From: a virus
Reading direction: 5' to 3' (one strand)
Length of the DNA stretch: 64,000 bases
Virus genome (UHGV): UHGV-0180032
Notes under the pieces: generated by a model
Database searches by the model: none
What the model saw: only the letters and a program-made list of their open reading frames with translations
Told to the model about the DNA's origin: nothing
In this document: piece by piece, positions 1,525-31,497 of the stretch
Numbering within the stretch: position 1 is the first letter of the stretch
Layout: each line of letters starts with the position of its first letter
Translations under genes and position numbers: made by a program

Positions 1525-1558
1525 TCTCCTTTATTCGAGACGTCCTTGTCCCGAGTCA

Positions 1559-6745: not shown

Positions 6746-6759
6746 CGTAAAGACTCCTA

Positions 6760-6801
6760 CTTTTAAATAAAATGGATACCCCTCCCCATTACAGGGAGGG
6801 G
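6760..6801 (-). terminator. hairpin (partial terminator) between two fibre genes
   Basis: Stem CCCTCCCC/GGGAGGGG at 6780-6801 followed on the minus strand by CCATTTTATTT; lies between the stop at 6840 and the start at 6745. Confidence 0.4.
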
Positions 6802-6839
6802 TTACCTACGGACACACAACTGCCCGCAGGCAGCCTGTC

Positions 6840-9800: not shown

Positions 9801-11024
9801 AGCGGTGGTCGCTTTCGTCGGGTCGATAGTCCCCACGATGGGATCGGCACGAGAACCTTTACCGGTAAAACTAATCCCGTTACGGCCTTCGATATACACT
9901 TTGGAGTCATCAGGATCGCTACCGCCACTCCCGCCAGCATCAGGGTCTTGCTGATACTCCATCAGCGCTGTGGTGGTCAACAACGGGTTACCGTTCAGGG
10001 TGAGTTTGTTCATCCCTAAAGCGTCACCGGTTGACTCGATGCGTAAGGTGTTTTTACCCGCACGCCAGTTAATGTAACGCCCCGCACCTGTGCCTTCCAG
10101 ATGCCCTACCGCTAATACCACAGAACCGTTGGATTTTAACGTAAAGCCATCATTCGCAAAAATGATTTCGGATTCACCGTTTTTCGAACGGAATTGTGCG
10201 CGGTTTCCAGACACCGTACAGTTAAACACGCCCCGTACTTCCGAAGAAATCCAGTGGGAGATATACGTGTCAATAACTGACTGTGGTAAACGAAACGCTT
10301 TCAGTTCATCCGTTAACGCTTTCAATTTTAACCCGTACGCCATAAAGGTGTCAGGTGTTTTCAGGTTAACGGGATGGGCATTAATTTGTGCGCTCGTGGT
10401 TTCGTGCGGGTTCGTCGCGGCGATATGTGCTGGGTAGTTAAACGCTTCAATTTCTTTCCCCAACGCAGTCACTAGCACTTTAACTTCGGCTATTTTATCC
10501 TTAATTAGCTGGTTAGCGTCATCGGTTTTCAACTCAATATCGTGAATCGCTGACGCTAAGTATTTTTTGTTCAGCAAATCCGCCCAGGACGTTGCCGCAG
10601 GCGTAGCTGGGTATAACGACGGTCTACCGTCTAACAACAGCCAGTCTGCACTGACTGGGTTATTCAGATATTTCACCAACTCGTCGAGCATGTCAACGAA
10701 CGGGTCGTAGAACGTACCGCCGAGCATTTGTCCTTCAAAGGTTACGATCCCTTTGATGGATGGGTTGATAAGGTGTACCCCACAATACACGTTGGCTGCT
10801 ACCGAGTCATCCAGTTCCGTCAGCTGATATTGCAGTTCGTAGTCCACCCCACGGCTCAGTGGGGTGGTTGAACCTGGTTGTCTGACGACTAAGTCTTCAA
10901 AGAACGGGCGATGGTCTAAAATCACCACCCGGTCATTGTTGTTTTCTGACCCGATGATACGCTCCTCTAAGAAGTGATTCTCGGTTTTCGTCCCCCGAGG
11001 ATCGTAAGGATACGCTTTCATCAA
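6840..11024 (-). CDS. giant virion fibre/tailspike-like protein (1394 aa)
   Basis: Uninterrupted 4.2-kb ORF; starts 10 nt downstream of the preceding gene; N-terminal motif (HRPFFEDL...GVDYEL) shared with neighbours. Confidence 0.55.
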   Translation of the reverse strand: MMKAYPYDPRGTKTENHFLEERIIGSENNNDRVVILDHRPFFEDLVVRQPGSTTPLSRGVDYELQYQLTELDDSVAANVYCGVHLINPSIKGIVTFEGQMLGGTFYDPFVDMLDELVKYLNNPVSADWLLLDGRPSLYPATPAATSWADLLNKKYLASAIHDIELKTDDANQLIKDKIAEVKVLVTALGKEIEAFNYPAHIAATNPHETTSAQINAHPVNLKTPDTFMAYGLKLKALTDELKAFRLPQSVIDTYISHWISSEVRGVFNCTVSGNRAQFRSKNGESEIIFANDGFTLKSNGSVVLAVGHLEGTGAGRYINWRAGKNTLRIESTGDALGMNKLTLNGNPLLTTTALMEYQQDPDAGGSGGSDPDDSKVYIEGRNGISFTGKGSRADPIVGTIDPTKATTAEKGVVKLKTGKGTETVGVAATPASLTPYSTDLSGYVTKTTMINGKPMNDGSRTITKADLGLGQADNTADLDKPLSTALNASVSGLADVGHHHDWSELGIYKASQTIYGIGRYATNQNGLVENRAVVPNILKELSARLDVVAAAIANAKEGTVTDFAAVKGADWRFNSQGTSISVQDLKYFYLLDGTKGDSTVTGAIDLQTTPMFNWFSPNNQLELTWPTGKVSNGTGINWTGIEEPPLMGFQSVAVGKTATQMGDQSVVTVLAKTRVRAYQSKLWVYAAGGGPVTVYINGNLAASGESPLVAVYETSSDVENYTIAVKAECSDTAKSAAVQFEVYDGDYPVYFSGPETRVELLQEFVTTHVGIRHYLYVNMLTGSLYSRAEPIQSVAVDPERGYIGYVDIVAGENYANKTVGFETTFDFGKSAEVSGHIATRKAHGLSSVDWALTDNPRLPLLNRAIAEPRACIFRKALAAGTGDVFHLVSRGLYTYAHNQNVKSSLQYVVIPEGATPYCWFTPFNPKENNAPTFEGSFVFDVDDVGGTQALTAAPDLVLCTSTQGASVKRRYVRIDLTAKACKLGIGSRSVSDVTDIPLVMEESGETAVNATFKDVLFNGEETNPAILDLIGWGAARDKISANHAPRGMIRYRYNVSTRVLRLALSFSQFGTTTVKQRQLEIQFPFDLVDYFTGDGIGLSFKELSAKCRVTISHALIDPVTNNINIDKYHYLRSLFESYLDSSVGYLADNKDADYSQSVIDPATYEISQKYRVTESIALPTGQGSVAVSHDGQLPAQFFDRKLSRGALMAKNNELHTSWNNEWSTTKAAASRYRHKLILRFAQGADKQQYRIAKVTGTIKSNWPGKVIIGDAGKDPFLASTDSAEFALSTSADVGKAISITATDLRVGQDIYIVLDPPGNNPEGYELNFTCSLDVTDEQSTRQDQLNAQSFELRSGEKQFLMEKRNPYHITSKAWKWILSVLKRELNGKQLGDRT

Positions 11025-11034
11025 AAAATTCTCC

Positions 11035-14000
11035 TTAATCGCGAATGATTACCGCCTGCACTTTATTGTTGGTGTCGATAAACGACATTACGCGCTCCTT
11101 GTTAAGATAAGGAGGTATCGGCAACGCAGCATAATCCGCCAGGTTGTTATTAAACTCGGTTGCCACTAACGCATTAAGCGTTTCAGGGTCTGAGCTTGTC
11201 CCGGCCAATTCCACGACGCGTACACGATTTAACGAGGAGTAGTTGCTGATATAATCCAACAGCGTACCGTAGAGTTTATTCCCGGTTATGCTGTCCGCCG
11301 TAGAGCGGATATTGGCACGCACTTCGTCCTCATAAAGTCCCCCTAATCCGTAGTAAATAGGGGTGTACGGATCGTTAACGATAGGCGCGAGGTTGAACCC
11401 GGTTAAACGGTCGGTCAGCGAGATTTTCTGCGTAGTACCACCTGCCGCCGTACAGCTTACGTATTTATCTGCCGCAGACAAATACACCACAATAGTGTAA
11501 ACAGTACCTGCTAAGGTCAGCGTTGCGTTAAACGTTAATTCGTTATTCGCACCACGCGTGTGGGTAAATGTCACATCAGGTTGTAACGTACTCCACGGTG
11601 CTGGGGTAACACGTTTGGTCGGCGTGAAGCCTAACACCACAGATCTCCCGTTACCGAAGTTTAAACCAAACCCGGCGTAACAATACTCACCGTTGCTGTC
11701 AGTTAAACGATAACCACGGGTGATAAGTAACGACAACCGCATAAACTCGTCATCGGTATTTTTCCAGCAACCCAGGATGGTTTCTAGCACCGTACCGGTT
11801 TTTGCGTTGCTTTCGGTTTCCCAACTGACTCGCATCCCCGTATTGTTAAATACTGGGAACAGGTTGTGGATAAACCCGTGAACGTTATCACTTACCCCTT
11901 TCGCATCAAACACCCACTTCGACGCAAGCTGGTCGTATTTCACACCGTCGAGTGCTTTATATCCGCCGCCAACCACATAACGCCAGTCTGCTTCACCACG
12001 CACAACCGCTTGAAGTCCAGAAGCCCAGCAGGGCGCACCTACTGTTAAATTGCTTAACCCCAGCACTGCACGTGAAGCAGAACGCTGAATGTGTGCGTTG
12101 TCATTAGCGACATGGTCTTTCAGCTCACGGAAATCCCCTAACCGTGTCACGTTACGTAGTTCAGTAACGAACACTTCAGAAAGGTCGTTAATACCGATCA
12201 ACCCCACGCGCGTCATGATATCCGTTTCAGCCTGACTGTAGCTGTCGTGAATAATGTACTTCGCTTTGTTATCGACAATGTCAACAAAAATCCCTGCGTA
12301 AACTTCCTTATTCAGATTCGGGAAACGTTCGGTAACGTTAACCGACATCAACGGTACGTTGTACGTTTCACCACCAATGAAATACGTGGAAGCAGGAAGT
12401 GTCACCAGGATTTTGTCTTTAACCGTAACGTCAATTAAGTCGTTACCGGACTTACCAAAGCGAATAATGTCAACTCGCGCACCCGAGTCAACCCCGCCGA
12501 CGGTATTCTCCAGTTTTTCAATCTGGGAAGTCTGCGCCATCACCACACTACTATCGAGTGCTAAAGTGACATCATCCACATCCAGACCGAACTTAATCAG
12601 ACCCCGTTTCGTGGTGTCTGCGTTTTCAACACCGAACACAGAAGACGGGTGTTGGTGAACCTTCGGTGAGTATTTGTCTAACTCAGTCTGCTGTGCAACA
12701 GAAATCGGCAAGTCGAGGTCCGGGGTATTCGCAACATTACCTAAACCAAAGGTAATTTTGTCGATAGTCACCGAACTGGTAAGCTGCATGTCGTTGATAT
12801 ACGACTTGGCAGCAACTAACTTACCGGTAAACTCTGCGTCTAGTTTTTCAATTAACGCGGGTGTAGCTGCAAGGTTTTCAGCCGTACCGAATTCGTCCGT
12901 TAACTGCCAGCAGGCTAACGTTGTGACGTCGTTGGCAACCGGAAGGATAAACGTTGCGACAAACGGTGATGCTTTAATCCCGCTGCCAGTAAGTTCCACG
13001 GTAGACGTCGACGCACCGTAGAACAGACCTGTACCGCCTGCGGTATTACCCGGCAAATACGGACCGACCGTAGTGGGGTCTAAGAGTTTCTTACCACGCC
13101 ACAACAGTCCACGGTCATCGGGGTATAGCACAAGCTGGTTATCGCCTGCCTGTAACGTAACAGGGTTGTTACCCGCATTAACATCGGTGGAGCCTTGACC
13201 GATAAACTTAATGGACTTCGGATCAACGACGAACTGGGCACCTAAACGTTTTTCGTCAACTACACCAGGTGCTTTCTTAATGGTAACCGTGTTACCTTTG
13301 TTTTGCGAACTAATAGAGACGCCGTCAGCAACATTATTGATCAGCGATTTAAAGTGATACCGATTCTCTAATGCTTCTAACGCAGAGTCCATGTTATCGA
13401 AGTTAATCCGGGCGCTATACGTTTTACCGTTTACGGTAATAACGGCGTCAAACACGTTCCCTGTACGCTTCAGTTGAAAACGCAGCGTAAAATCCCCATC
13501 CGGTATTGCTGGATCAGGAGCTTGAGAAATATACCGAACTGACGGTACCGGACTCCCGTAACCGTGCAACGACAGTTCGATAGTAAGAGTACCACCCCAG
13601 ACTTCACCGAAAATCTCTACGTACTTACCGGAGTTACTACCGGGATTTTCGTAGAAACGTAAACCGGCCCTACCGACTGCCTCATTACCAGACGCTGTTT
13701 TACGTCCAGTAACAATAAAGTCAATATCTTGCAGGTTAGCGGGTACCGCATTAAAAGAAGCACTAAATCCATTCTTCGTTCCTGTGTAACGAAGCGCGCC
13801 GTGATACGTGCGGCCTTGACTAACATAGCTTTCGCTAAAATAAGGACTCACGTATTTAGACATCGAAACCGGATCAACTTCTGTCGTGAACGAAGTAAAA
13901 CCGGGCAGCGTTCCAATGGTTCCGTCGGCCGTTTTCGTAGTTGACGTGCGCAGTAGTTTCTTTTGCGCAGCCAATGTTGCTTGCGTTGGATACTTAGCAT

Positions 14001-15357
14001 TAACATAATCTGTTAACTGCGGCTTCGTTTTTCCGTAAGCTAACGCTGTATCCGTCGCAATACCATTCAACTCTAACGCACGGATCGGGCCCCACGTATC
14101 GTTGTGCGGGTTGTCCTTACGTGTAACGTGTTCGTGCGCAGGTGCGTTGCGATAGAGCTGTTCTACTAACTGATGGTACTTAACGATTAGCTGATAAACG
14201 TCATTACTTACGTCTGCTTCTGGCGCACCAGGTAACGCAAGGAATTGAGCGTAATCGTTTTCAGCCGCCCACCAGTTTAAGTTAACGTTGGTTTTGTATT
14301 TCAGCCACTTCGCAACATCCGTTTTGGTGTAACCTGCTGAAAATTCGTCTGGCGGTGTGTCAACGTTAAAGGTGTAGTCCATGGACTGTTTGTTAGTCGT
14401 CACCTCGATAACGTATACACCGTTACCCGGTTGACGAACAACGCTAAACGTTAACTCGCCTTTTAATTCGTCGTCGGTCAAACCGTTGATTAACGTATAA
14501 TCATAATCGGTCGAACCGCTGCCTAACGCAACCGTCAGTCGTAGACCGATTTTACGTTGTTTTAATTGGAGACGAAGGATACTTGCACCACCGTTCGCGT
14601 AGCACAGCATCCAATCGATTTGTTCGTTCGGGTTAATACTCCCCATGTTCGGAAAAATAGCCGGGATACGGTATTTCATCGACAGGGAATATTCATTTAA
14701 CGTGGTGGTTTTGTACGTAACGGAGAAACGACGTTTAGCGGTGTTGTAAGTATACCCACCTTTGTTGTCGTACGTTGCGTACTGTTCAGATGTGATAACC
14801 GTACCATTAGCACGGTGTTCGATATCTAACGTGTTACGTGCAATCGGGTCTACCCGATTCACCACGTTACCTAACGAATCACCTAAGCCTGCAATGGCCT
14901 GCATTAATTCCAGTTCACCTTTCCAGTTTTCCCAGTCGAACTGAATGTCAACCGGTGGAAAGTAAACGTCGCCGATAACGGTATCCCATTGACACGCAGA
15001 CGGGTATTTATCTTTATTGAGTTCGCGTTCTGCGGTAATCTGTTCTTGGGTCGCTTCACCACAACCTACGGCGTGGTAATCTACCGTGAAATTCGATTTG
15101 TATTTGTCGTTAACAATCCAAATCATCCCGTGCACGAGATAGGCTGTGCGCAACATACCGGTCTCGTACGGGTGTGTAATAACGTAATCGTCGCCTAAGG
15201 TCAGTATTTTGCCGCCGCTCTTGACCACCAGGGATGTGGTGAAAAAAGGGGCGTGGGCAGGTACCAACATTCGGTACTTCGTACCAATGACGGCGACCGC
15301 TTCACCGGTTATTTTATTCCCCGGTTCTTTGAAGTGTGGGTCTAGGACGACAGCCAT
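11035..15357 (-). CDS. giant virion fibre/tailspike-like protein (1440 aa)
   Basis: Uninterrupted 4.3-kb ORF, first gene of the minus-strand operon; AGGAG RBS; N-terminal motif (HAPFFTT...GDDYVI) shared with neighbours. Confidence 0.55.
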   Translation of the reverse strand: MAVVLDPHFKEPGNKITGEAVAVIGTKYRMLVPAHAPFFTTSLVVKSGGKILTLGDDYVITHPYETGMLRTAYLVHGMIWIVNDKYKSNFTVDYHAVGCGEATQEQITAERELNKDKYPSACQWDTVIGDVYFPPVDIQFDWENWKGELELMQAIAGLGDSLGNVVNRVDPIARNTLDIEHRANGTVITSEQYATYDNKGGYTYNTAKRRFSVTYKTTTLNEYSLSMKYRIPAIFPNMGSINPNEQIDWMLCYANGGASILRLQLKQRKIGLRLTVALGSGSTDYDYTLINGLTDDELKGELTFSVVRQPGNGVYVIEVTTNKQSMDYTFNVDTPPDEFSAGYTKTDVAKWLKYKTNVNLNWWAAENDYAQFLALPGAPEADVSNDVYQLIVKYHQLVEQLYRNAPAHEHVTRKDNPHNDTWGPIRALELNGIATDTALAYGKTKPQLTDYVNAKYPTQATLAAQKKLLRTSTTKTADGTIGTLPGFTSFTTEVDPVSMSKYVSPYFSESYVSQGRTYHGALRYTGTKNGFSASFNAVPANLQDIDFIVTGRKTASGNEAVGRAGLRFYENPGSNSGKYVEIFGEVWGGTLTIELSLHGYGSPVPSVRYISQAPDPAIPDGDFTLRFQLKRTGNVFDAVITVNGKTYSARINFDNMDSALEALENRYHFKSLINNVADGVSISSQNKGNTVTIKKAPGVVDEKRLGAQFVVDPKSIKFIGQGSTDVNAGNNPVTLQAGDNQLVLYPDDRGLLWRGKKLLDPTTVGPYLPGNTAGGTGLFYGASTSTVELTGSGIKASPFVATFILPVANDVTTLACWQLTDEFGTAENLAATPALIEKLDAEFTGKLVAAKSYINDMQLTSSVTIDKITFGLGNVANTPDLDLPISVAQQTELDKYSPKVHQHPSSVFGVENADTTKRGLIKFGLDVDDVTLALDSSVVMAQTSQIEKLENTVGGVDSGARVDIIRFGKSGNDLIDVTVKDKILVTLPASTYFIGGETYNVPLMSVNVTERFPNLNKEVYAGIFVDIVDNKAKYIIHDSYSQAETDIMTRVGLIGINDLSEVFVTELRNVTRLGDFRELKDHVANDNAHIQRSASRAVLGLSNLTVGAPCWASGLQAVVRGEADWRYVVGGGYKALDGVKYDQLASKWVFDAKGVSDNVHGFIHNLFPVFNNTGMRVSWETESNAKTGTVLETILGCWKNTDDEFMRLSLLITRGYRLTDSNGEYCYAGFGLNFGNGRSVVLGFTPTKRVTPAPWSTLQPDVTFTHTRGANNELTFNATLTLAGTVYTIVVYLSAADKYVSCTAAGGTTQKISLTDRLTGFNLAPIVNDPYTPIYYGLGGLYEDEVRANIRSTADSITGNKLYGTLLDYISNYSSLNRVRVVELAGTSSDPETLNALVATEFNNNLADYAALPIPPYLNKERVMSFIDTNNKVQAVIIRD

Positions 15358-18132: not shown

Positions 18133-18155
18133 GAAATGTAATCAGATATATTTTA
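18133..18155 (+). promoter_or_regulatory. conserved promoter-like motif, copy 1
   Basis: CAGATATATTTTACTTAGGTGAG; immediately followed by a 10-bp-stem hairpin (18157-18183). Confidence 0.4.
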
Positions 18156-18501
18156 CTTAGGTGAGTAGGGGCTGAACTCGCACTTCAGCCCCTATGGGCA
18201 CGTTTCTTTCGAAACGGAGTTACCACGTGATTAGGAGACAGACCAATGTCTACTGAGAAGAAAAGCGGATTGGACGAAGTCATCGAACTGTTCAAACGCT
18301 ACAACCCGGCTATTCCTCGGTAATCATAGTATTACTTAAAATTTACAGATTGACCCTTTATTCTGCTACTCGGGATACCGGTAGGGGGTAGGGGGCAATA
18401 TGTATACGGATATAAATAGCGGAGGTATACGTAGTATACCGACATACTCTTCCCAGAGGAACGTAGTGACTTCCTTATTCCTTTTTAGGAGAATAAACCC
18501 C

Positions 18502-19815: not shown

Positions 19816-20943
19816 ATGCATATTTGCCATAACGCACCGTCGCACAGACTTTATCTTGAAATGCTTTTCGAGGACTACAAGAAAGGGGTGCCGAAAATAT
19901 TACTTAGCATCTCAGGTGCCACGCAAACTGAATTGTTCGGTCGTGTTTTTGGTTGTACCGTTAACGCTTTGCCAGAACCAATCTGTGCACCTGTGGATGT
20001 TTGTGTTTTCGACGAGCGAATTGAGGATTTTCAATTCACCTTTTACGTAAATGATTCTTTACCGTACGACAAACTTTACGTTCGTGAGTTGAAATCAAAT
20101 CAGCGGTTAATGTACCGCGTCTATCCACCCCACAAATGGTCGGTGCTAGAGTATAAAATCAGGCGGCTACCTTACGAGGGTGTGCAATTACTCGACCAGC
20201 AGGATATGGCTTTTCTGGAAGAACTTTGCGGATTTGAAATTGAGAAGATTCACGTAACCCAGGAAATATCCCGAAACGTACCTAGTCGTCATACCCCTAA
20301 CGGTGGATTTCCGTACGAGTTCACCGACACAGGACTAAGGCTCGTAACCGAATTTAACGACGTAATGTATTACGCAGTGTGTATTGAACGTAAAGTAGTG
20401 GAGAAAGAAATGGCAAGTACATTGAAAGAAGAATTAGCCCAATTCATTCGTGATGTTGAAGAGAAAAGCAAGAGCGATCACATATTCTCACAACGCTATC
20501 CTGAACTTATTGACGAAACCACCGATAGTGTCGTCGACGGTATACGCATTTTCCCAAGTGGTCTTGCAATCTACCGACTACCTAGCGTTAACCAGCTTAA
20601 AGTCATGGAAATGCTAAAAGACGTTTTAGCAGAAGCGGGTTGGGAATATCGCTTCGATTGCAATTTCGAAGGGATGGCGTTATTCGTTACAAAGAAAAAC
20701 TATACCTTGTCAATCGATCTACCTAAAAGTCAATATTACAGTTTCTTCCCGAAAGCGGATGACCGCACTGAAAAAGAACCTGCGATGTTACTTGATGCGG
20801 CAGAATCCAATACGTTAATGGTGCGTCTGCGGTCAATTGACAAAAAGTTAAACACCAGTCATTTAACGACGATCGGTAAAGATTACGGTTGGAAATCTGT
20901 CGAACCGTACGGCAGTCAGCTGCTGTTTGTTGCTGACCTTTAA
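19816..20943 (+). CDS. hypothetical protein; paralog family (C-terminal YGWKSVEPYGSQLLFVA)
   Basis: 375-aa ORF; shared C-terminal motif; followed by a terminator hairpin. Confidence 0.55.
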   Translation: MHICHNAPSHRLYLEMLFEDYKKGVPKILLSISGATQTELFGRVFGCTVNALPEPICAPVDVCVFDERIEDFQFTFYVNDSLPYDKLYVRELKSNQRLMYRVYPPHKWSVLEYKIRRLPYEGVQLLDQQDMAFLEELCGFEIEKIHVTQEISRNVPSRHTPNGGFPYEFTDTGLRLVTEFNDVMYYAVCIERKVVEKEMASTLKEELAQFIRDVEEKSKSDHIFSQRYPELIDETTDSVVDGIRIFPSGLAIYRLPSVNQLKVMEMLKDVLAEAGWEYRFDCNFEGMALFVTKKNYTLSIDLPKSQYYSFFPKADDRTEKEPAMLLDAAESNTLMVRLRSIDKKLNTSHLTTIGKDYGWKSVEPYGSQLLFVADL

Positions 20944-20994: not shown

Positions 20995-21010
20995 TAAGAA
21001 GGAAATAGAA

Positions 21011-21784
21011 ATGAAAGTCCATTTAGACGACCTCTTTAAAACTGAACCGTATATGGTTAAAGGTTCATTGGCTTCACTGTTGTTAGATGATAGATTTCAT
21101 CGAACGCTCCAATTACAATCGGTCGAATCCGCACCAACAGAAGACGTGGGTCTTTATCAACGTATCACTTATACACGCGGAGAATATCGGCGATATAAAC
21201 CTGATACGCTAACCGTTAAGCTCTGGCAAGTGGCCACAGGCAAAGTATTAACTTATCGCACTGTTGGTCTGTACTACGTTGAACGTGCCTACGCGTGGTT
21301 AGAAGAAGTTAAAGAAATGGATTACGACCGCTTAAGCAAAAGACTGCGCGATAACAACGCCAGTTTACCGATACGCAATTATTTCTCCACAATTGAAAAT
21401 AGTCGTTGTTTCGTTTCACGCGAATCCATGATATTGCCTGGGGCTGATGTTCAGACGACACTAAAAGATGTGGTTGTGAGGAAAATCTTTCATGAATCTG
21501 AACACGTTGGATTTCGTATCTATTTAACTCACAAGAGGCCATTTACCGTGATTCATCTTGTTACCGTACCCGAAGGCTCAGCGGTCGTACGTGAACTTCC
21601 TGACGCACGTGACCGTAGTCCTAATGAGCCGCTTTACTTAATGTCAGGAACAAAATCAGAATCTTTGATGTCCCGTTACAGCATGGTTGATGTTGTTGAT
21701 ACTGCTATGAAGTTAGGTTGGAAAGAAGTACAGCAGCACGGCAAACAATTGCTGTTTATCGCAGATGTAAATCTCAATAACTAA
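21011..21784 (+). CDS. hypothetical protein; paralog family (C-terminal LGWKEVQQHGKQLLFIA)
   Basis: 257-aa ORF with GAAGGAAA RBS; shared C-terminal motif. Confidence 0.55.
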   Translation: MKVHLDDLFKTEPYMVKGSLASLLLDDRFHRTLQLQSVESAPTEDVGLYQRITYTRGEYRRYKPDTLTVKLWQVATGKVLTYRTVGLYYVERAYAWLEEVKEMDYDRLSKRLRDNNASLPIRNYFSTIENSRCFVSRESMILPGADVQTTLKDVVVRKIFHESEHVGFRIYLTHKRPFTVIHLVTVPEGSAVVRELPDARDRSPNEPLYLMSGTKSESLMSRYSMVDVVDTAMKLGWKEVQQHGKQLLFIADVNLNN

Positions 21785-21796
21785 AGAGGTGGTACC

Positions 21797-22375
21797 GTGT
21801 ACCGATTAATAGAAATGAGAAAAGACGTTTGGTTGGAAAACCTCGTCGATGGGGAGCTCGAGGGAATAGAGCTTTCCTTACCAGAGAGAGCGGACACGGT
21901 ATTGGCCTTTCTGGTAAAACAGGCAGACCGTGAACCGGTAGGAATCTTCACTGTGGACTATAAAGATCCACGAGGAATCCATTTACGGAACATTTGCAGT
22001 GGTTTGGAAAACTTACCGGCTAATCCGTTCTTAAACTACGCAAAACGTAAACTCCAACCGGGACAACACCTCTGGGTAACGTTATCGCCTGACGTTAGGA
22101 TCATACGTGACGATTACTCGGCGTTTGTACAGGCAACGAAAGTCAGTCTGTATAACCCGAACGCAGAGCGTACCGATATGCCGTTTATAATTACCTTAGA
22201 AGACGATGGAACGCAAGAAGGTATCGAGGCAATTACGGAATTAGTAAACTCTTATCCGGTTGCCACTATGGAGTTAGAAAACCCAAGCCGACTACCGTTG
22301 GGTGACCTGCTCGAATGGATTGAACTGAATACAGAATTCTTAATCAATTCTCGTCAGTATCGATTCGATGTTTAA
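21797..22375 (+). CDS. hypothetical protein (192 aa)
   Basis: GTG start with AGAGGTGG RBS; followed by terminator at 22380-22410. Confidence 0.5.
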   Translation: MYRLIEMRKDVWLENLVDGELEGIELSLPERADTVLAFLVKQADREPVGIFTVDYKDPRGIHLRNICSGLENLPANPFLNYAKRKLQPGQHLWVTLSPDVRIIRDDYSAFVQATKVSLYNPNAERTDMPFIITLEDDGTQEGIEAITELVNSYPVATMELENPSRLPLGDLLEWIELNTEFLINSRQYRFDV

Positions 22376-22379
22376 CAAC

Positions 22380-22410
22380 GGTGGGGTGTAAGCCCCACCT
22401 TTTATTTTTT
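22380..22410 (+). terminator. intrinsic terminator
   Basis: GGTGGGG/CCCCACC stem followed by TTTTATTTTTT. Confidence 0.7.
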
Positions 22411-22434
22411 GTTCGCTGACATTAAAAATAATCT

Positions 22435-22457
22435 CAGATATATATTACTCAGGTGAG
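22435..22457 (+). promoter_or_regulatory. conserved promoter-like motif, copy 2
   Basis: CAGATATATATTACTCAGGTGAG; followed by hairpin 22456-22474; upstream of the secreted-protein gene cluster. Confidence 0.4.
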
Positions 22458-22504
22458 AGTTAAGATTAACTCTTTTACTTGGTAACCCCACGAGGAGCAA
22501 AACA

Positions 22505-22966
22505 ATGAAAATCTTCACTTCCTTTTTAATCGCCCTTTTCGCAATCGGATTCAATACTGCACACGCCGCAATCAATAGCTGGGAACAACTACCGAACCCA
22601 GGTCAGGCTGTTTACGAAATTGAAGATACCGCCGGAAACGGACTGTCTATCAACTGTGACACTGAAACTGCGAATCGCAAATTTTACGGTCGCATGGTTT
22701 GGTATTACGGGGAACCTGTAGGTGCAACTAACGCTGAAGACAACACGTTGGATATTGTCGTAAATGGCAAAACCTACAACATCCCTACCGTGGATGGTAG
22801 TGACAAAGCAGAACTCGCTTGGGTGGCTTTCGTTAACGCTATCGGTAACGCCAAAACGTTCAGTGTGAATATCAATGGTAACGAAGCTGCTAACTTTACC
22901 GTAGAAGGCGAACGTCTGTCGGAAACTTTCTTCCAGAACTGTGGACACACCCGTCCTAACAAATAA
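22505..22966 (+). CDS. secreted/periplasmic hypothetical protein
   Basis: N-terminal signal-peptide-like segment MKIFTSFLIALFAIGFNTAHA; GAGGAG RBS. Confidence 0.55.
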   Translation: MKIFTSFLIALFAIGFNTAHAAINSWEQLPNPGQAVYEIEDTAGNGLSINCDTETANRKFYGRMVWYYGEPVGATNAEDNTLDIVVNGKTYNIPTVDGSDKAELAWVAFVNAIGNAKTFSVNINGNEAANFTVEGERLSETFFQNCGHTRPNK

Positions 22967-22988
22967 GTATTAATCTTTTTTAGAGTGC

Positions 22989-23381
22989 GTGAAAATGAAT
23001 ATCAGAACTATACTTTATACAATCATTATTTTCTGTGCAATCGGCATTACTGGCACTTATGCTTTCGGTGGCTCGGATGTCAGCCATTACGAACCGGCTC
23101 CTGACTCACCGATTATCAACCCGGATGAGTCCCCTACGTTAATGCGCAGTTTCGGTAAACTGCAAGTTTATCGCTTAGTACGTGGTGAAACGTGTACCGG
23201 ATTACTCATTGCTGACACCCGTGCACAAGTCTACCAACGTCTGACGGATATCGCCTGCGAACAACCAAAAGTCATGTCGGTCAGTATTCATCCGTTAGAG
23301 GTCGGTAATTATACTGCTGTGGACTTCTTCCATAATGCAGAACTGATTGGCCGTATTACTTTAAATCGTAGCGCTGAATAA
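22989..23381 (+). CDS. secreted/periplasmic hypothetical protein
   Basis: N-terminal hydrophobic leader ...ILYTIIIFCAIGITGTYA; start could be GTG 22989 or ATG 22995. Confidence 0.5.
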   Translation: MKMNIRTILYTIIIFCAIGITGTYAFGGSDVSHYEPAPDSPIINPDESPTLMRSFGKLQVYRLVRGETCTGLLIADTRAQVYQRLTDIACEQPKVMSVSIHPLEVGNYTAVDFFHNAELIGRITLNRSAE

Positions 23382-23399
23382 TTTAATGGAGAATTTACA

Positions 23400-23888
23400 A
23401 TGAAACGTTTACACACCCTGATGTTCTTCGTGGCTATTCTTTTCACAGGCTTTACCTTTAACGCAGAAGCGGCTACCGTAAAACAAGCTCTTAGCTGTAA
23501 CCCGGAAGCCTGGGCTGAACAACCTGGTGCGTGTCCATCAACGTACGAGTTGTACGAAGGTGACGCTACCTACAAAGCCGCTATCGACAAAGCATTAAAA
23601 CCGGTCGGACTGAGCGGCATGTTCGGTAAAGGCGGCTATATGGATGGCCCTGGTGGAGGTATCACGCCAGTAAACATTAACGGTACAGTCTGGCTCCAGG
23701 GCGACGGTTGCAAAGCCAATACCTGCGGCTGGGACTTTATCGTAACACTCTATAACCCAAAAACCCATGAAGTTGTTGGCTACCGTTACTTTGGTTTAGA
23801 TGACCCGGCCTACCTGGTTTGGTTCGGTGAAATTGGCGTGCATGAATTCGCGTATCTGGTGAAAAACTACGTAGCTGCGGTTAACTAA
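23400..23888 (+). CDS. secreted Ivy-like (lysozyme/lytic-transglycosylase inhibitor) candidate
   Basis: Signal peptide MKRLHTLMFFVAILFTGFTFNAEA; KGG-Y ... GCKANTCG loop resembling the Ivy C-K-x-x-x-C motif, compared against a sequence recalled from memory. Confidence 0.4.
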   Translation: MKRLHTLMFFVAILFTGFTFNAEAATVKQALSCNPEAWAEQPGACPSTYELYEGDATYKAAIDKALKPVGLSGMFGKGGYMDGPGGGITPVNINGTVWLQGDGCKANTCGWDFIVTLYNPKTHEVVGYRYFGLDDPAYLVWFGEIGVHEFAYLVKNYVAAVN

Positions 23889-23903
23889 TTTAAGGAGTCT
23901 ATC

Positions 23904-24314
23904 ATGAAAACGTTTATCAAAACTTTACTCGTTGCTGTAACTGTTCTGTTCTCTCTTAACGTGGCAGCAAAAACAGTAAAACTACCGGCGGGTATCAAAT
24001 ACGTCAACAGTACCGATGAATTCTACTGCACAGAAATTGACGGTCTGTATTGCCAGACAAAGAATTTGTTTGAATACAAAGGTAACAGATATGTTTTCGT
24101 TGTTGAGCAAGGCGGTGCCTGGTGCTACGACAGCCCTATGTCGGTACTCAACCTGGAAACTTGGAAAGCACAGAAAATTGAATACAAAGACAACCAACTG
24201 TGTTCAGGCGAAAACAAACCGTTCTTCAAAATCAAAAATGGTGTCCCGACTGTAGGTATTATCGACACCTCTGGAACACCAATCGTTGTAGCTCAGGACA
24301 AACTTAAAATCTAA
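23904..24314 (+). CDS. secreted/periplasmic Cys-containing hypothetical protein
   Basis: Signal peptide MKTFIKTLLVAVTVLFSLNVAA; AAGGAG RBS; several Cys residues. Confidence 0.55.
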   Translation: MKTFIKTLLVAVTVLFSLNVAAKTVKLPAGIKYVNSTDEFYCTEIDGLYCQTKNLFEYKGNRYVFVVEQGGAWCYDSPMSVLNLETWKAQKIEYKDNQLCSGENKPFFKIKNGVPTVGIIDTSGTPIVVAQDKLKI

Positions 24315-24324
24315 GGAGTAAACC

Positions 24325-24714
24325 ATGCGTCTTATCTGCGCTTTGTTGGCGTTTTTCTCAATCGGAGTTATGGCTTCTACACACATCGACGATTTATTAC
24401 TTACCCCGGCAACGAACACAGACTATCACTACAACCCACCGGGTTTTGAAGTCTGCGAAGGCGATGCAGGCGAATGCCAAGAAGTTGGCGCAGATGGACG
24501 CTATATACTCGTAAAAGCAGACGGCGGGACAACCTGTCCTGCGGGTTATTATTTCGTACTTGACTCTGTAGCAAAAGAGGTGCTTCCTGTAACGACCAAA
24601 ACGTGTGACCCCACAGTTGTACTAACGCTTGCGAAAAGCAAATCACGTGACCGTCATCTTATCGTCATCGAAGAACGCGGTGAGATGCTAGGCGCTATCG
24701 AATTAGATTACTGA
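24325..24714 (+). CDS. secreted/periplasmic Cys-containing hypothetical protein
   Basis: Signal peptide MRLICALLAFFSIGVMAS; AAGGAG RBS; terminator follows. Confidence 0.55.
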   Translation: MRLICALLAFFSIGVMASTHIDDLLLTPATNTDYHYNPPGFEVCEGDAGECQEVGADGRYILVKADGGTTCPAGYYFVLDSVAKEVLPVTTKTCDPTVVLTLAKSKSRDRHLIVIEERGEMLGAIELDY

Positions 24715-24725
24715 TGTGTAGTCTT

Positions 24726-24763
24726 GACCCCGGTTCGTGCCGATTCGTCCGGGGTCCTTTTTA
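24726..24763 (+). terminator. intrinsic terminator
   Basis: GACCCCGG/CCGGGGTC stem followed by CTTTTT. Confidence 0.65.
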
Positions 24764-24792
24764 CGACTTGTTTTACCTAAAGGAGAATTAAA

Positions 24793-25269
24793 ATGCGTTT
24801 ATCTAATGTTTATCAAGCAGCCCAATTCCATCACGAACTGACGGCTAAGCCTGAGTATATTCGCCACAACTTAACGGTGGCATGGAAACTGTTAGTGATT
24901 GCTGATGCAGCACGGCACAACGACCAGGAAACCATTATCAAAACTGTGCGTACTTTACGCCCTATTGACCTGGAAACAATTTGGTCGTTTGACTTAACTC
25001 GAATTTATCATCGTCGTTTTAATGCGGCGGTGGATGCGATACGTCCTTATTTCCACTATTTGCAAGCAACATCGGACTGTGGTCCATCCTTAGAGTGGGT
25101 CTTGGTACAAAGCGTATGGAGCGATTACATTTATCTCCTATCTTTAGAGACGGGTGAATGCATTATCGCTAACGAGGTATTCTCAACCAACGCCGAAATG
25201 TATCGTTCCCACGCTACTATCCAGGGTGTCTCACAGCCTATCTTATCACTCACGCACTTAGGGCTGTGA
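24793..25269 (+). CDS. hypothetical protein (158 aa)
   Basis: AAAGGAGA RBS; flanked by terminators. Confidence 0.5.
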   Translation: MRLSNVYQAAQFHHELTAKPEYIRHNLTVAWKLLVIADAARHNDQETIIKTVRTLRPIDLETIWSFDLTRIYHRRFNAAVDAIRPYFHYLQATSDCGPSLEWVLVQSVWSDYIYLLSLETGECIIANEVFSTNAEMYRSHATIQGVSQPILSLTHLGL

Positions 25270-25271
25270 TT

Positions 25272-25306
25272 AGCCCGGCCCCGCTGTGTACGGGGCTTCT
25301 TTTTTG
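25272..25306 (+). terminator. intrinsic terminator
   Basis: GCCCCG/CGGGGC stem followed by TTCTTTTTT. Confidence 0.65.
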
Positions 25307-25323
25307 CCCAAGGAAACTGAAAC

Positions 25324-25932
25324 ATGAACGAAATTACTTTGGTTCGTTTTATCGAAGCGATGCATCGAAACGAAGCTAATCCGCACTCTCCGTTATTCAT
25401 CGATTTAATGGAGGAAGAAGTCGAAGGGTTCTTAGCGTACCCGCGTTTGAAAGCGTATTTCGAACGTAAAACACCAACCGCTTACGAGAAGTTGATGTAC
25501 GCGTTAGACAACCGTACTACGCTGAACACCACACCGTTTAAAGCGCTGGAAGCAATTGACCCTACCGGGGGCGCAGGTATCCCACAACGTGTTGTGTTCT
25601 ACTACATCGACAACGGCCGTATTAAAGCCGACGTTGTAAACTGGATCTCCGAAGGGGAAATCCCAGAAACGCGTACTTTTAACCTCTGTCCGGTGGAAGA
25701 AGGTTGGGTCGCAGGAACGCATTATTCCTATCCGTATCAAAGCATCAAATCGCCTTATCTGTATCCGGTGTATTTAGATGACGTTACGCCAGGCAAATGT
25801 ATTCCCGTTACCAATCTGATTTGCTTACTGACGATGGAAGTTGTTGCGTCAGATGCAGGCCAGGCTTGGGTTGAGCAATCGAAGAATATCCAAAACTGGC
25901 AGGAGATGGGTTACAAACTCTACCAGCCGTAA
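25324..25932 (+). CDS. hypothetical protein (202 aa)
   Basis: ORF between two terminators; no recognisable motif. Confidence 0.5.
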   Translation: MNEITLVRFIEAMHRNEANPHSPLFIDLMEEEVEGFLAYPRLKAYFERKTPTAYEKLMYALDNRTTLNTTPFKALEAIDPTGGAGIPQRVVFYYIDNGRIKADVVNWISEGEIPETRTFNLCPVEEGWVAGTHYSYPYQSIKSPYLYPVYLDDVTPGKCIPVTNLICLLTMEVVASDAGQAWVEQSKNIQNWQEMGYKLYQP

Positions 25933-25937
25933 TACCA

Positions 25938-25986
25938 CGAGAGAACCTTCGGGTTCTCTCCCTTCTCTTTTATTTTTTTTTCTTTT
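25938..25986 (+). terminator. intrinsic terminator
   Basis: GAGAGAACC/GGTTCTCTC stem with TTCG loop followed by a long T-run. Confidence 0.75.
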
Positions 25987-26017
25987 TACACCACGCTCCG
26001 TGAATATGGAGGTGGAC

Positions 26018-28522
26018 ATGTTAAAAGTTGAACGTATTGTACTTAAAGGATTTACCGGAATGGGGTTACACGAAATCGAAACCTTCGATTTTACTATCCA
26101 TTCCCCGACCACCATTATCCTCGGTGGTAACGGCTGCGGTAAGACCAGCTTACTGTCCGTGTTTCTACCTATCGCACCTTCGAAATCCGAATTCCGTGAC
26201 GGGGGTTCTTACACCAATATCTGTTTGGTTAACGACCATCGTTACAAGTTTAAAGTTGCACGTAAAGGCAACTCACTGGTTTGCGATATCGAGAACCTGA
26301 CGACGGGTACCAAAATCGTCGAGCAAGGTAATGCGAAAGTGTACAACTCTCGCGTGGAAGAAATCACGGGTATTACAAAAGAGATTAAAGAGTTACTGAA
26401 CGGGGAAGTGCTTTTAACCGATGCAGGAACGGAACTGCGTCGTAAGTGGTTCTACCGTTTAAGTACATCAGACTTAACGTACGCGTTAGGTTTTTATCAA
26501 CGTTTACGAAAAAACCTGACGATGCTAAACGGCGGTATTGAAATCACCAGCCGTAAAATTGCAGAGTTGCGTACCCGCGTAATTGATAACGAGGAAGAAC
26601 GACAGCAGTTAGCAACACGGTTAAAAGCATTAGAAGCAGATTTACGTGAACTCAACAAACAGATCGAACAACTGCCTGGTCTGAATCGTGACGTTACGGT
26701 GGCAACGATTCAATCGCTATTGCTTAAAATCGAAGCACCGATTAATGCTATCTTGGAACACCGTGGTGGATTACCTACGGAAGAACAGGTAGAGGAAGCA
26801 CGACGCGTTGAAGCCACTGCCCGTGAAGCGGTGGTCTCTGCTGAAACAGAACTGTCTATGCTAAACAAAGATTTGTCTTTGTTGATGGACGAGTCTACCC
26901 GCCAAGATTACCTGATGCGAAATCACGAAGGGTTAAAGAACACGGTTGCGAAACTGCGCGAGTTATTAAAGCAGTGGGACACTGAGCACCTTTTCCCTGA
27001 ACTGTTTGCGGAGACCGTTAACATCGACCAGCTTAAAGCAGCGACGGATGCGCGTGTCTGGGGACAACGTTTAGGAACAACGCTGGACGCCATTAAATCA
27101 ACGGAACGGTTGAACGTACTGGAAGAGAAACTGTTGACCTTAGACCAAAACTCGTCTGGGTTGCGTGACCGACTGCAACGTGTTGAAAACGTATTGCAGA
27201 ACCTCAACCACGAACGGAATCACTATTTGGAAACCGCCGAGGTTGATTGTCCGCAGTGTCAGTTTAAATTCCGTCCGGGTGTCCGTCGTTCTTTGCCTGA
27301 ATTGGAAGAAGCCATTCGTGGGCAGATGGAGCAACGTAATACGTTACAGACTCAACTTGATTCCGTGTTGCGAGACCGTACGGAATTAGAATCGGACGTT
27401 AATTACATGCGTCAAGTACGAGAAATCGTTTTAACATACTCGAAAGACCCGGTATTGAGTTTGTTCTTTAAACGTCTCCAGGAGCGGAATGTCTTTACGG
27501 ATAACCGCAGTCAGTTCGGCAGTTTGTGCGCAGAGTTCGATCGTGAACTTTATTCCGCAATTGAGTACCACGAAACGAAACACCGTTTCGCTAAAGCGGA
27601 AAAAGAGTGGGCAAACGCAGTTGCAGCGGTAGGTAACGTTGACGGTGCACTACAGCAGAAAATTGCCTTCCAACAGGAACGTTTGGGTAAGGCAACAGAA
27701 ACGCTCTCAGAGCGCCGTAGAGAGCACGCAGTTGCTAATGATACCTTTTGTTATCTAAACGAACTTAAAGCCACTGTAGACAATTTTAATGCGGTTTTTG
27801 AGCGTTTAGAGAACGATGTTAAGGTAACATTAACCAACACGGTGGTCGAAACGTTATTAAACGCCCGAGAAAACAAGTTGGATGCGTTCACCACAGCACG
27901 AGAACGGTATCGTCAAATGGAAAACGAACTCAACCAACTTACTGCGTTAGAAAAGGAGTTATCAGATTTACAAGCGCAGCAATTCAATAACAAGCTGATG
28001 ATTCAAGCGTTCTCGCCCGAGAAAGGGGTACTACGCAAATACTTCTACAACGCTATCGTGAGAATCACGGAATTGATGACGCGGTATATCGAACAAGTCT
28101 GGACCTACCCTATGCGGGTCATGCCGTGTGACTTAACCGACGGTGACTTAGACTACACCTTCCCAGTGCAGTTGAAAACCCATCCTGAACCGGTACCTGA
28201 CGTACGGAAAGGGTCGAAAGCACAGCGAGCCATCTTTAATTTGATGTTTCGTTTAACCGCTTACAAGGCCCTGAAACTCCATCAGTATCCGCTACTGTTG
28301 GATGAACCGTCAGAAGGGATGGATGAAGAACACCGAAATAACCTCGTTGGGTTTATTAAAACCTTGGCGAATTCCGGTGAGTTCTCTCAGTTACTGGTGG
28401 TGTCTCACGAAGCAGAAATTCATTCAAAACTTAACGAAGCCGCATACTGTGTTATTGAACCTGAAGGCGTAACACTGCCTGCGGTTTACAATGAAGGAGT
28501 AAAAATTGTCTACGCAAACTGA
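26018..28522 (+). CDS. Rad50/SbcC-like recombination ATPase (T4 gp46-like) with zinc hook
   Basis: Walker A GGNGCGKTS near the N-terminus; long heptad-rich middle with CPQC hook; C-terminal KGSKAQRAIFNLMF (signature-like), LLLDEPSEGMD (Walker B/D-loop) and VVSHE (H-loop); start 26018 (or 26006) chosen over the ORF-track 25841, which would run through the upstream terminator. Confidence 0.75.
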   Translation: MLKVERIVLKGFTGMGLHEIETFDFTIHSPTTIILGGNGCGKTSLLSVFLPIAPSKSEFRDGGSYTNICLVNDHRYKFKVARKGNSLVCDIENLTTGTKIVEQGNAKVYNSRVEEITGITKEIKELLNGEVLLTDAGTELRRKWFYRLSTSDLTYALGFYQRLRKNLTMLNGGIEITSRKIAELRTRVIDNEEERQQLATRLKALEADLRELNKQIEQLPGLNRDVTVATIQSLLLKIEAPINAILEHRGGLPTEEQVEEARRVEATAREAVVSAETELSMLNKDLSLLMDESTRQDYLMRNHEGLKNTVAKLRELLKQWDTEHLFPELFAETVNIDQLKAATDARVWGQRLGTTLDAIKSTERLNVLEEKLLTLDQNSSGLRDRLQRVENVLQNLNHERNHYLETAEVDCPQCQFKFRPGVRRSLPELEEAIRGQMEQRNTLQTQLDSVLRDRTELESDVNYMRQVREIVLTYSKDPVLSLFFKRLQERNVFTDNRSQFGSLCAEFDRELYSAIEYHETKHRFAKAEKEWANAVAAVGNVDGALQQKIAFQQERLGKATETLSERRREHAVANDTFCYLNELKATVDNFNAVFERLENDVKVTLTNTVVETLLNARENKLDAFTTARERYRQMENELNQLTALEKELSDLQAQQFNNKLMIQAFSPEKGVLRKYFYNAIVRITELMTRYIEQVWTYPMRVMPCDLTDGDLDYTFPVQLKTHPEPVPDVRKGSKAQRAIFNLMFRLTAYKALKLHQYPLLLDEPSEGMDEEHRNNLVGFIKTLANSGEFSQLLVVSHEAEIHSKLNEAAYCVIEPEGVTLPAVYNEGVKIVYAN

Positions 28523-30728: not shown

Positions 30729-30810
30729 ACAACAAAGGAGTACCAGCTGTCCGCGCCGTGATTTCGTTCTACGGAACACGGAAATGTATAAATCCAACTG
30801 GAGAACTAGT

Positions 30811-31497
30811 ATGTTTCGTATTTTCTTTCTTTTACTGGTAACACTTTTCGCGTTTAACGCATACGCATCCAAATCCGCGCCCAGTGCCAAACACCATCGT
30901 GAATTCGAAATGATTCAAGACCGTTTCGAACGTGTAAAACCGTTGATTGTGGAAATCTCCCGAAAGCAGGGCGTCGATCCTAAATTGATGACCACGCTAA
31001 TCTATCGAGAGTCACGGTTTAATCCGAAGGCGTATAATCGAACGTCTAAAGCGCACAGTCTGGTTCAGATGCTACCGAGCACAAAGCGTAATTTGCTAAA
31101 ACTCTACGGCAACGAAATCGGGCTTAGTCGTAACGCGGATTTGTACAATCCTCGCAATGCGGTGCTATTGGCTTCCGTCTACGTTAAACATTTAGAAAAG
31201 GGGTTGACTAAACGACTCAAACGCAAGCCCACTATTGCAGAAATTGCATTGGCTTATCACTGGGGTGAAAGCGGTGCACACGCCAGGATTAAAAGCAAGT
31301 CTCGGGCAGCACAACGAGAAATGGCGAGCTTTATGAAAGATGCAACGTTCTACAGTGCGAAAATCGACAAGCCTGTAGCGTCTCGTCAGCTTGCGTTTGC
31401 GAAGAAACCAGAACGCCAGATTCAGTTAGCGGAAGTTAACCGAATTTGGGATACGATAAACACCAGTTTTCCATTTAAACAAGGAGTCACCCTTTGA
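30811..31497 (+). CDS. secreted lytic transglycosylase (SLT-domain)
   Basis: Signal peptide MFRIFFLLLVTLFAFNAYA; catalytic-region motif RESRFNPKA...SKAHSLVQMLPST matches the SLT E-S ... GLMQ pattern; GGAGAA RBS before ATG 30811 (ORF-track start 30784 possible). Confidence 0.6.
   Translation: MFRIFFLLLVTLFAFNAYASKSAPSAKHHREFEMIQDRFERVKPLIVEISRKQGVDPKLMTTLIYRESRFNPKAYNRTSKAHSLVQMLPSTKRNLLKLYGNEIGLSRNADLYNPRNAVLLASVYVKHLEKGLTKRLKRKPTIAEIALAYHWGESGAHARIKSKSRAAQREMASFMKDATFYSAKIDKPVASRQLAFAKKPERQIQLAEVNRIWDTINTSFPFKQGVTL

Follow-up and report, generated by a model that had tools for sequence, protein, structure and literature searches.

The window analysed here, a stretch of 64,000 nt of the virus genome UHGV-0180032, carries at positions 22505–24714 five consecutive plus-strand genes, which we named w1 to w5, encoding small proteins with predicted Sec-type leaders. 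The third of them, w3 (23400–23888, +; 162 aa), is, judged from its sequence, a periplasm-targeted (predicted) protein of the Ivy superfamily, whose C-K-A-N-T-C loop lies in register with the inhibitory loop of Ivy. By analogy with that family, w3 would inhibit wall-cutting enzymes of incoming phages and would thereby serve superinfection exclusion in the infected cell and defence where the gene resides in a genomic island, a tentative reading to which we assign a probability of about 0.45. The reality of the genes, their leaders, the Ivy homology and fold, the register of the loop, the operon boundaries and the exchange with islands were computed, and we infer periplasmic inhibition, its targets, early timing, and an exclusion phenotype.

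Direct searches with w1 to w5 against Pfam, NCBIfam, PADLOC and, by phmmer, the Protein Data Bank (PDB) gave nothing above threshold, and w3 matched no Ivy entry in the PDB. An exhaustive HMMER profile search starting from w3 and its close homologs found 58 proteins, and the Ivy model PF08816 recognised 27 of the 33 aligned full-length w3 relatives (best E 7.6e-12). A profile of 33 relatives without any canonical Ivy (A3) matched 1GPQ, 1XS0, 1UUZ, and 4PS6 with E values between 4e-12 and 5e-10 and nothing else in the PDB; it was used in place of profile A8, whose comparison with the PDB was set aside as circular because this alignment contains Ivy. Using hhalign, the close w3 family aligned with E. 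coli Ivy, a query sequence confirmed against 1GPQ and 1XS0, over 81 columns with CKANTCG on CKPHDCG (P 4e-4), and MAFFT likewise placed CKANTC on CKPHDC. The KGG-Y...G-C-K-A-N-T-C-G motif noticed in the third gene by the first-pass annotation is found in the form FGKGGY...GCKANTCGW, with the loop encoded at 23709–23726 (+; residues 104–109) and aligned with the inhibitory CKPHDC of Ivy. Cys104 and Cys109 are invariant in alignment A8, Lys105 is invariant in the w3 subfamily (alignments A1 and A2), and the Gly after the second loop Cys is nearly invariant in the same subfamily. The structure model of w3 shows the predicted Ivy fold, an antiparallel beta-sheet flanked by helices, and places the loop in a hairpin between predicted antiparallel strands 96–104 and 113–119, with moderate model confidence (pLDDT 67.7, below 50 at residues 107–109). 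The earlier description of the protein as Ivy-like therefore stands as far as the C-K-x-x-x-C loop and the match of the relatives' profile to Ivy are concerned, but not as membership by the curated models or as possession of Pro-His-Asp. Natural alleles of the loop comprise CKANTC, CKANAC, CKSNAC, CKSDAC, and CKAHAC, and w3 has a second conserved Cys pair (33 and 45), which E. coli Ivy lacks.

The leaders were judged by one heuristic rule (n-, h-, and c-regions plus a -3/-1 site) in all 59 gene-like open reading frames (ORFs) of the window. Seven passed, five of them being w1 to w5 in an uninterrupted run, compared to two of the other 54; the four flanking proteins have no such leader by the same rule, and a combinatorial estimate puts the chance of five in a row at about 2e-4. 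In each leader, one or two Lys/Arg but no acidic residues precede a hydrophobic core with KD 2.5–2.9, and a -3/-1 site follows, with predicted cleavage (marked by a slash) at AHA/A (approximate), TYA/F, AEA/A, VAA/K, and VMA/S in the order of the genes, the leader of w3 comprising residues 1–24. The remaining two leader-bearing ORFs encode an SLT-domain enzyme (30784–31497) and, outside the module, a protein of 151 aa (36730–37185, +) with a signal-peptide-like N-terminus (MKLLLFIMILCVGLVSNSYG/E). Besides w3, the run consists of w1 (22505–22966, +; 153 aa), w2 (22995–23381, +; 128 aa), w4 (23904–24314, +; 136 aa), and w5 (24325–24714, +; 129 aa). An alternative GTG start at 22989 would lengthen w2 to 130 aa, but its orthologs and the sister-phage annotation begin at ATG 22995, which is probably the true start. 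The mature proteins contain 2, 2, 4, 4, and 4 Cys, paired in w3 as Cys33–Cys45 and Cys104–Cys109. The first-pass annotation, which had reported five adjacent genes with Sec-type leaders for Cys-containing proteins of 130–160 aa, agrees with these data. No second hydrophobic segment was present in w1 to w5, and no lipobox was seen on reading their leaders by eye, with no lipobox scan run; an identity as spanins or lysis-cassette lipoproteins was rejected, as neither a lipobox (leaders read by eye) nor a membrane-anchor pattern was found. Across four phage genomes, dN/dS was 0.03–0.22 for all five genes, and this purifying selection indicates that they are real. Gene-wide positive selection was not detected in w3 (dN/dS 0.10–0.21 in nine w3 pairs and 0.11–0.16 in pairs of the window or its sister record NZ_CP173450.1 with other phages).

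Directly downstream of the run, an SMC-like protein (25994–28522) shares 69% identity with gp207 of Erwinia phage Asesino and 58% with gp186 of Salmonella phage SPN3US, and the order of the genes around it is identical in the window, Asesino, and SPN3US, so that the window belongs to a phiKZ-like jumbo phage, evidently related to these two. Comparison of the region by megablast with a phage collection resulted in no match at the DNA level, and tblastn of w3 and likewise of w1 against 50,697 phage records gave none. Canonical E. coli Ivy gave a single tblastn match there, in Escherichia phage PHB10 (MK524177.1, 14591–14950, -; 38% identity to E. coli Ivy, E 8e-23), where the gene is annotated as hypothetical. 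A Foldseek search of the w3 model against the viral structures of BFVD yielded no significant match, and Ivy-fold proteins are rare in phages. A sister jumbo phage with 93–98% identity across window positions 21000–26000 was identified as NZ_CP173450.1 (locus L004), and the same locus is present on several metagenomic and IMG/VR contigs of 107–227 kb. Since the sister record comes from an E. coli isolate and the contigs are related, the host is taken to be E. coli or a close relative. In its database entry, NZ_CP173450.1 figures as a circular 'plasmid' (221,873 bp) of an E. coli isolate of urinary origin from Egypt, which suggests a carrier or pseudolysogenic state, or a phage co-isolated with the bacterium.

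The segment 23393–24347, which runs from the ribosome-binding site (RBS) of w3 through w3 and w4 to the RBS and the opening codons of w5, is common to the phage and to CP4-type islands of E. coli. It reaches 97.5% nucleotide identity with E. coli chromosomes, and its w3 part occurs in 2333 of 5426 complete E. coli genomes (about 43%). In HUE1 and 50EVA, the w3–w4 pair lies inside a CP4-type integrative island, with genes for a GTPase, a dynamin-like protein, an RdcB-like protein, and a patatin-like phospholipase upstream and genes for DUF932, an antirestriction protein, YeeS, YeeT, and CbeA/CbtA downstream, followed in 50EVA by an integrase. The genes upstream of the cassette (1297–6677 in island locus L011 and 3216–8670 in L003) gave weak PADLOC matches to Eleos LeoA/LeoBC and a phospholipase effector, and this GTPase/dynamin/RdcB/patatin group may be a defence system. 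RefSeq annotates the E. coli w3 homolog with 227 aa (L003 8806–9489 and L011 6813–7496), including 65 additional N-terminal residues, which would leave the signal peptide buried; as homology to the phages begins only about 15 nt before an internal ATG, this start is probably mis-called. In the sister phage, the w3 copy (L004 7083–7583) carries a pseudogene flag ('incomplete; missing N-terminus'), probably for the same reason.

Both directions of transfer could be traced. While w1, w2, w4, w5, and w6 of the window are 95–98% identical to those of the closest sister phage (dS 0.07–0.19, and 0.07–0.24 for the genes other than w3 overall), w3 is only 77% identical to its counterpart (dS 0.98) and instead 97.3–97.5% identical to E. 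coli alleles (dS 0.07–0.09). The gene is chimeric, its leader-coding part matching the sister phage and its mature part E. coli, so that the window phage is a recent recombinant with an island allele. In the islands, in turn, w4 is still followed by the RBS of the phage and by the beginning of w5 (ATG-CGT), reduced by a 1-nt deletion to a dead stub of seven codons; as ATG-CGT opens the w5 orthologs even in Asesino and SPN3US, the original capture went from phage to island. Both w3 allele classes occur in both pools, the alleles being shuffled and residues 3–5 of the loop varying. That the E. coli-like stretch stems from an assembly chimera or contamination, as its 97–98% nucleotide identity to E. 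coli chromosomes over 23393–24347 might suggest, has a negligible probability: all seven sister-phage loci examined have both genes in this position, with alleles diverged to 60–77% protein identity, which excludes an artefact, and moreover the reading frame runs through the junctions, w3 has a phage-type 5' end, and the GC content of the segment is raised only slightly.

In the mechanism we propose, the five genes would form one operon of a jumbo phage infecting E. coli, with a terminator and a promoter-like motif specific to the phages on its 5' side and a terminator-like hairpin on its 3' side. All five products would lose their cleavable Sec leaders and then reside, as small proteins with disulfide bonds, in the periplasm of the infected host. 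The beta-hairpin loop C-K-A-N-T-C of w3, clamped by a disulfide, would be the counterpart of the Ivy loop that enters a lysozyme-like active-site cleft, and w3 would inhibit peptidoglycan-cleaving enzymes that arrive with other phages, be they virion-borne lytic transglycosylases or lysozymes. An infected or an island-carrying cell would in this way become harder to penetrate, with superinfection exclusion or inter-phage competition as the outcome, and w1, w2, w4, and w5 would probably serve, likewise in the periplasm, at other steps that concern entry or the wall. Hairpin loops of this geometry plug lysozyme clefts in Ivy, MliC, and Pli inhibitors (PMC7677548); Ivy proteins inhibit C-type lysozymes with nanomolar affinity, and Ivyp1 and Ivyp2 of P. 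aeruginosa inhibit MltB in vitro (PMC2267010, PMC10139938). Furthermore, a hypothetical protein of E. coli O121 with an Ivy-like fold and a CKANTC loop was described in a preprint, in which its knock-down by CRISPR interference (CRISPRi) raised fitness and plating efficiency of phage T7; its authors proposed T7 lysozyme as the target and also considered a role at the cell surface (bioRxiv 10.1101/2024.04.20.590424). It is almost certain that this protein is encoded by the same island allele as is carried by w3. The passage of T7 across the wall is aided by gp16, an ejected protein with a lytic transglycosylase at its N-terminus. For an exported inhibitor, gp16 is a more natural target in the periplasm than the cytoplasmic T7 lysozyme. 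The position of the cassette in mobile CP4-type islands, beside dynamin-like, patatin, DUF932, and antirestriction genes, speaks for the same reading.

Several points weigh against it. w3 had no match in Pfam at E ≤ 1 and reached only E 0.098 and 12.5 bits with NCBIfam NF007443 (cut-off 180), none of the five proteins matched a PADLOC defence model, and confidence in the w3 model is moderate and lowest within the loop itself. The T7 result comes from a preprint, was obtained by CRISPRi, which is polar onto the w4-like and downstream genes, and was attributed by its authors to a different target, and E. coli Ivy is a weak inhibitor of MltA and MltB (PMC10139938). Early timing of the operon rests on the inference drawn from its promoter-like motif. 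Asesino and SPN3US keep the rest of the module but have no Ivy-like gene, so that the core function of the module is independent of Ivy. Finally, the w3 loop keeps Cys-Lys...Cys-Gly, with Ala-Asn-Thr in place of the Pro-His-Asp of Ivy proteins that are proven lysozyme inhibitors. In Ivy, the loop His contacts catalytic residues of lysozyme. As w3 lacks this canonical His, inhibition cannot be assumed for it.

The same substitution is what one would expect if the Ivy fold were used otherwise, e.g., to bind a periplasmic or outer-membrane host component, to change receptor availability or to damp envelope-stress signalling, with the five proteins as a general set for remodelling the periplasm. 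The extra N-terminal pair Cys33–Cys45, absent from E. coli Ivy, four of five proteins without a recognisable function, and the cell-surface role weighed in the O121 preprint (bioRxiv 10.1101/2024.04.20.590424) would fit such a role, too. Nevertheless, we consider it doubtful, since what is conserved in Ivy is exactly the clamped loop with its invariant Lys and the Gly that follows the second Cys, and every characterised member of the family inhibits peptidoglycan glycosidases. The circular 'plasmid' record of the sister phage also raises the question of a host benefit, in which a phage in a carrier or episomal state would use w3 to shield its cell from animal lysozyme in the manner of chromosomal Ivy, known to contribute to lysozyme tolerance (PMC2267010). 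With a loop devoid of His and Asp, ivy and mliC already present in E. coli, relatives that are lytic jumbo phages, and a homolog whose sole reported phenotype concerns phage T7, such a moron function appears very unlikely.

The boundaries of the operon were examined on both sides. An intrinsic-terminator hairpin with a U-run at 22380–22399 (+; 8 bp, 6 of them GC; dG -16.7, z -3.8, 0 of 200 shuffles as good) terminates the preceding operon. A scan for sigma-70 promoters found no sigma-70-like promoter upstream of w1; the promoter-like motif that had been reported before the module holds as a conserved AT-rich motif of 23 nt (CAGATATATATTACTCAGGTGAG, 22435–22457, +), not sigma-70-like but specific to jumbo phages, and is the candidate phage promoter of the operon. 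This 23-nt element (CAGATATATNTTACNNAGGTGAG) is the sole similarity of the region at the DNA level to the distant phages Asesino and SPN3US. Two copies occur in the window compared to 0 expected, both intergenic before plus-strand operons, the second at 18143–18165 (+), 5' of the preceding one. At the orthologous position, the motif recurs in Asesino, SPN3US, and five loci of sister phages, seven other phage loci in all, and it is conserved in phiEaH2, too, but is absent from the E. coli island loci L003 and L011. In IMG/VR, the exact 23-mer was confined to jumbo contigs of this group (107–246 kb) with one to three copies each. According to a review, the sole promoter class that bioinformatics can find in jumbo phages encoding RNA polymerases consists of conserved AT-rich motifs, about 10 nt long, ahead of early operons (PMC7598289), and the motif at 22435–22457 is therefore read as a probable early promoter of the virion RNA polymerase and as a candidate consensus of the group. 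In the literature searched, we found nothing on SPN3US gp180–183 or on the temporal class of these genes, and no transcript data. Among the other motif forms tried, the phiKZ-early-like 8-mer TATATTAC occurred once in the window without enrichment, and a 13-mer with three mismatches was not enriched either, so that only the extended 23-nt form reached significance. At the 3' end, a hairpin with an 8-bp GC-rich stem (GACCCCGG...CCGGGGUC) followed by CUUUUU at 24726–24762 (+; dG -20.6, z -2.3), which had escaped the strict terminator scan because of its long loop, closes the operon as a plausible terminator, in accordance with the one annotated after the module. The operon varies at its head: sister locus L005 carries an extra gene for a leaderless protein of 123 aa (3191–3562) between the promoter-like motif and the YfjT-like gene, and other sister phages harbor a second YfjT paralog instead.

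Possible targets are also encoded by the phage itself. Two transglycosylase-type proteins had been annotated in the window, and SLT domains were indeed detected in an enzyme in the endolysin slot (30784–31497, +; E 4e-14) and in a protein of 961 aa (61076–63961, -; residues 581–666, E 2e-8), which would be of the kind carried in phiKZ-like virions and an example of a target for an Ivy-type inhibitor. The endolysin-slot enzyme has a cleavable Sec-type leader (MYKSNWRTSMFRIFFLLLVTLFAFNAYA/SKSA, NAYA/S) with equivalents in Asesino gp218 and SPN3US gp198, and this phage group thus seems to export its endolysin. Here the main rival explanation arises, namely that w3, perhaps together with the 4-Cys proteins, restrains the phage's own Sec-exported SLT endolysin until lysis time or blocks lysis from without. 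A muralytic enzyme requires restraint once exported, Ivy proteins are able to inhibit lytic transglycosylases in vitro, and a module of exported proteins accompanies an exported endolysin in all three phage groups. On the other hand, the E. coli island copy works without a phage endolysin and is kept in 43% of the genomes, Asesino and SPN3US have the same exported endolysin without the Ivy-like gene, and the operon, 6 kb away from the endolysin, has a separate promoter-like motif of a type reported from early operons. To our knowledge, moreover, known signal-peptide and signal-arrest-release (SAR) endolysins are controlled by membrane energisation and not by protein inhibitors. Overall, we regard lysis control as unlikely and retain inhibition of the enzymes of incoming phages as the favoured reading.

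The five proteins do not form one family, as w1 is YfjT-like, w4 and w5 are paralogs, w3 falls into the Ivy superfamily, and w2 was not placed. By BLASTP, w1 showed 27% identity over 135 aa (E 5e-15) to K-12 YfjT of the cryptic prophage CP4-57, and its orthologs in sister phages are precomputed as PF27224:YfjT; our Pfam search of w1 gave no PF27224 match, the copy of Pfam used apparently being without that model. Some sister phages carry two YfjT copies, the second paralog being 38% identical to YfjT (E 3e-32), and by these similarities w1 is clearly a YfjT-family protein. Orthologs of w2, w4, and w5 with 35–52% identity were identified in Asesino (gp201, gp203, gp204) and SPN3US (gp180, gp182, gp183), and their PHROGs (phrog_9424, phrog_8968, and phrog_5248, respectively) carry annotations without a function. 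Comparison of w4 and w5 by hhalign (probability 95%, E 4.5e-8) indicates that these two predicted 4-Cys, all-beta proteins are paralogs, and the gene that occupies the w3 slot in Asesino and SPN3US (gp202 and gp181) matched the w4 family (82%, E 1e-5) and is probably a third 4-Cys paralog. From its position it follows that the Ivy-fold gene displaced one 4-Cys paralog in the E. coli phage clade, where the YfjT-like gene would likewise have been added at the front of the operon. A relation of w2 to w5 as paralogs was not supported (hhalign E 0.29) despite a weak PHROG cross-match. The all-beta model of w5 is weak and its fold matches were uninformative; neither w4 nor w5 matched Pfam or PDB profiles (PF09864 and solved MliC/PliC structures) or gave a convincing fold match. 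Next to YfjT in CP4-57, the K-12 lipoprotein gene yfjS (L012 14682–15125) encodes a protein that could be aligned from end to end with the w5 family, the two Cys being in register. With hhalign P values of 0.002 against the w5 family and 0.045 against w2, membership of YfjS in either family is no more than suggestive; its profile could not be deepened, as all 29 genome matches were at least 87% identical. The alignment is a hint that each of the five phage genes may have a counterpart in CP4 islands. One could go further and regard the operon as a multi-component periplasmic 'entry shield', in which unrelated exported families would each neutralise a different wall-piercing enzyme or DNA-entry step of rivals, and whose parts (the Ivy-like/w4 cassette and YfjS/YfjT), passed back and forth between jumbo phages and CP4-type islands, would represent a class of periplasm-acting anti-phage systems not recognised so far; we put this forward as a rather improbable extension.

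Elsewhere in the window, the plus-strand genes 19816–20943 and 21011–21784 upstream of the module have a C-terminal domain in common (35% identity over 65 aa, E 2e-9) and are tandem paralogs. Three consecutive giant minus-strand ORFs at 1559–15357 (1728, 1394, and 1440 aa) had no Pfam match.

The Ivy family itself was already known, and the E. coli CKANTC protein had been noticed once. In the literature searched, we found no description of an Ivy-like copy in a jumbo phage, of an operon of five exported proteins, of the coupling with w4, or of a two-way traffic between phages and islands. Periplasmic inhibitors of wall enzymes encoded by phages are known essentially from T4 Spackle alone, and an Ivy-fold inhibitor, if true, would be a second independent solution. 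It would also provide a natural function for a gene of about 43% of the complete E. coli genomes, for which a CRISPRi hint has so far been the only clue, and would tie the debated role of Ivy, in lysozyme or in lytic transglycosylase control, to conflicts between phages and between phage and host. The cassette represents a dated and directional case of two-way gene flow between a jumbo phage and host islands; if the 'entry shield' applies, the recent allele swap would also show a phiKZ-like jumbo phage still recombining with the host chromosome, despite the view that phages of this kind keep their DNA shielded. Reagents that can be tested directly are at hand: the five small exported proteins, the natural variants of the loop, and, in one and the same genome, two SLT enzymes.

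In comparison with known systems, membership of w4 and w5 among the MliC/PliC, PliG, and PliI inhibitors or with the type VI secretion system immunity protein Tsi1 was not supported by Pfam, PDB profile, or fold. YfjT and YfjS of CP4-57 in K-12 are exported proteins of CP4-type elements; YfjT is a clear homolog of w1, while the link of YfjS to w5 is weak (P 0.002) and not statistically secure. The Ivy proteins (E. coli Ivy/YkfE, 1GPQ and 1XS0; P. aeruginosa Ivyp1, 1UUZ and 4PS6; PF08816) are encoded by a chromosomal gene of the Rcs regulon and carry K-P-H-D in the loop, whereas w3, a gene of jumbo phages and mobile islands that remains below the Pfam and NCBIfam thresholds, carries K-A-N-T and adds Cys33–Cys45 as well as an N-terminal extension of the mature protein. 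'Hypo_04657' of E. coli O121 (PHAGEPACK preprint, bioRxiv 10.1101/2024.04.20.590424) has the Ivy-like fold and CKANTC in common with w3 and is reported to have an anti-T7 effect, seen on its knock-down, but is borne by the chromosome or an island and annotated with the 65-aa N-terminal extension, and the preprint reports neither a phage copy nor the w4 partner, the five-gene operon, or an exchange between phage and island. Spackle of T4 (gp61.3), a bundle made up of alpha-helices only, binds next to the cleft and has an allosteric action (PMC7677548), unlike the beta-rich Ivy fold of w3, which would presumably insert its loop; the two are unrelated in sequence and fold, Spackle homology not having been searched directly. 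As a small, phage-encoded protein with a cleavable leader (predicted in w3) and a disulfide, which acts in the periplasm, inhibits the tail-associated lysozyme, and causes superinfection exclusion, Spackle nevertheless serves as the functional model for w3.

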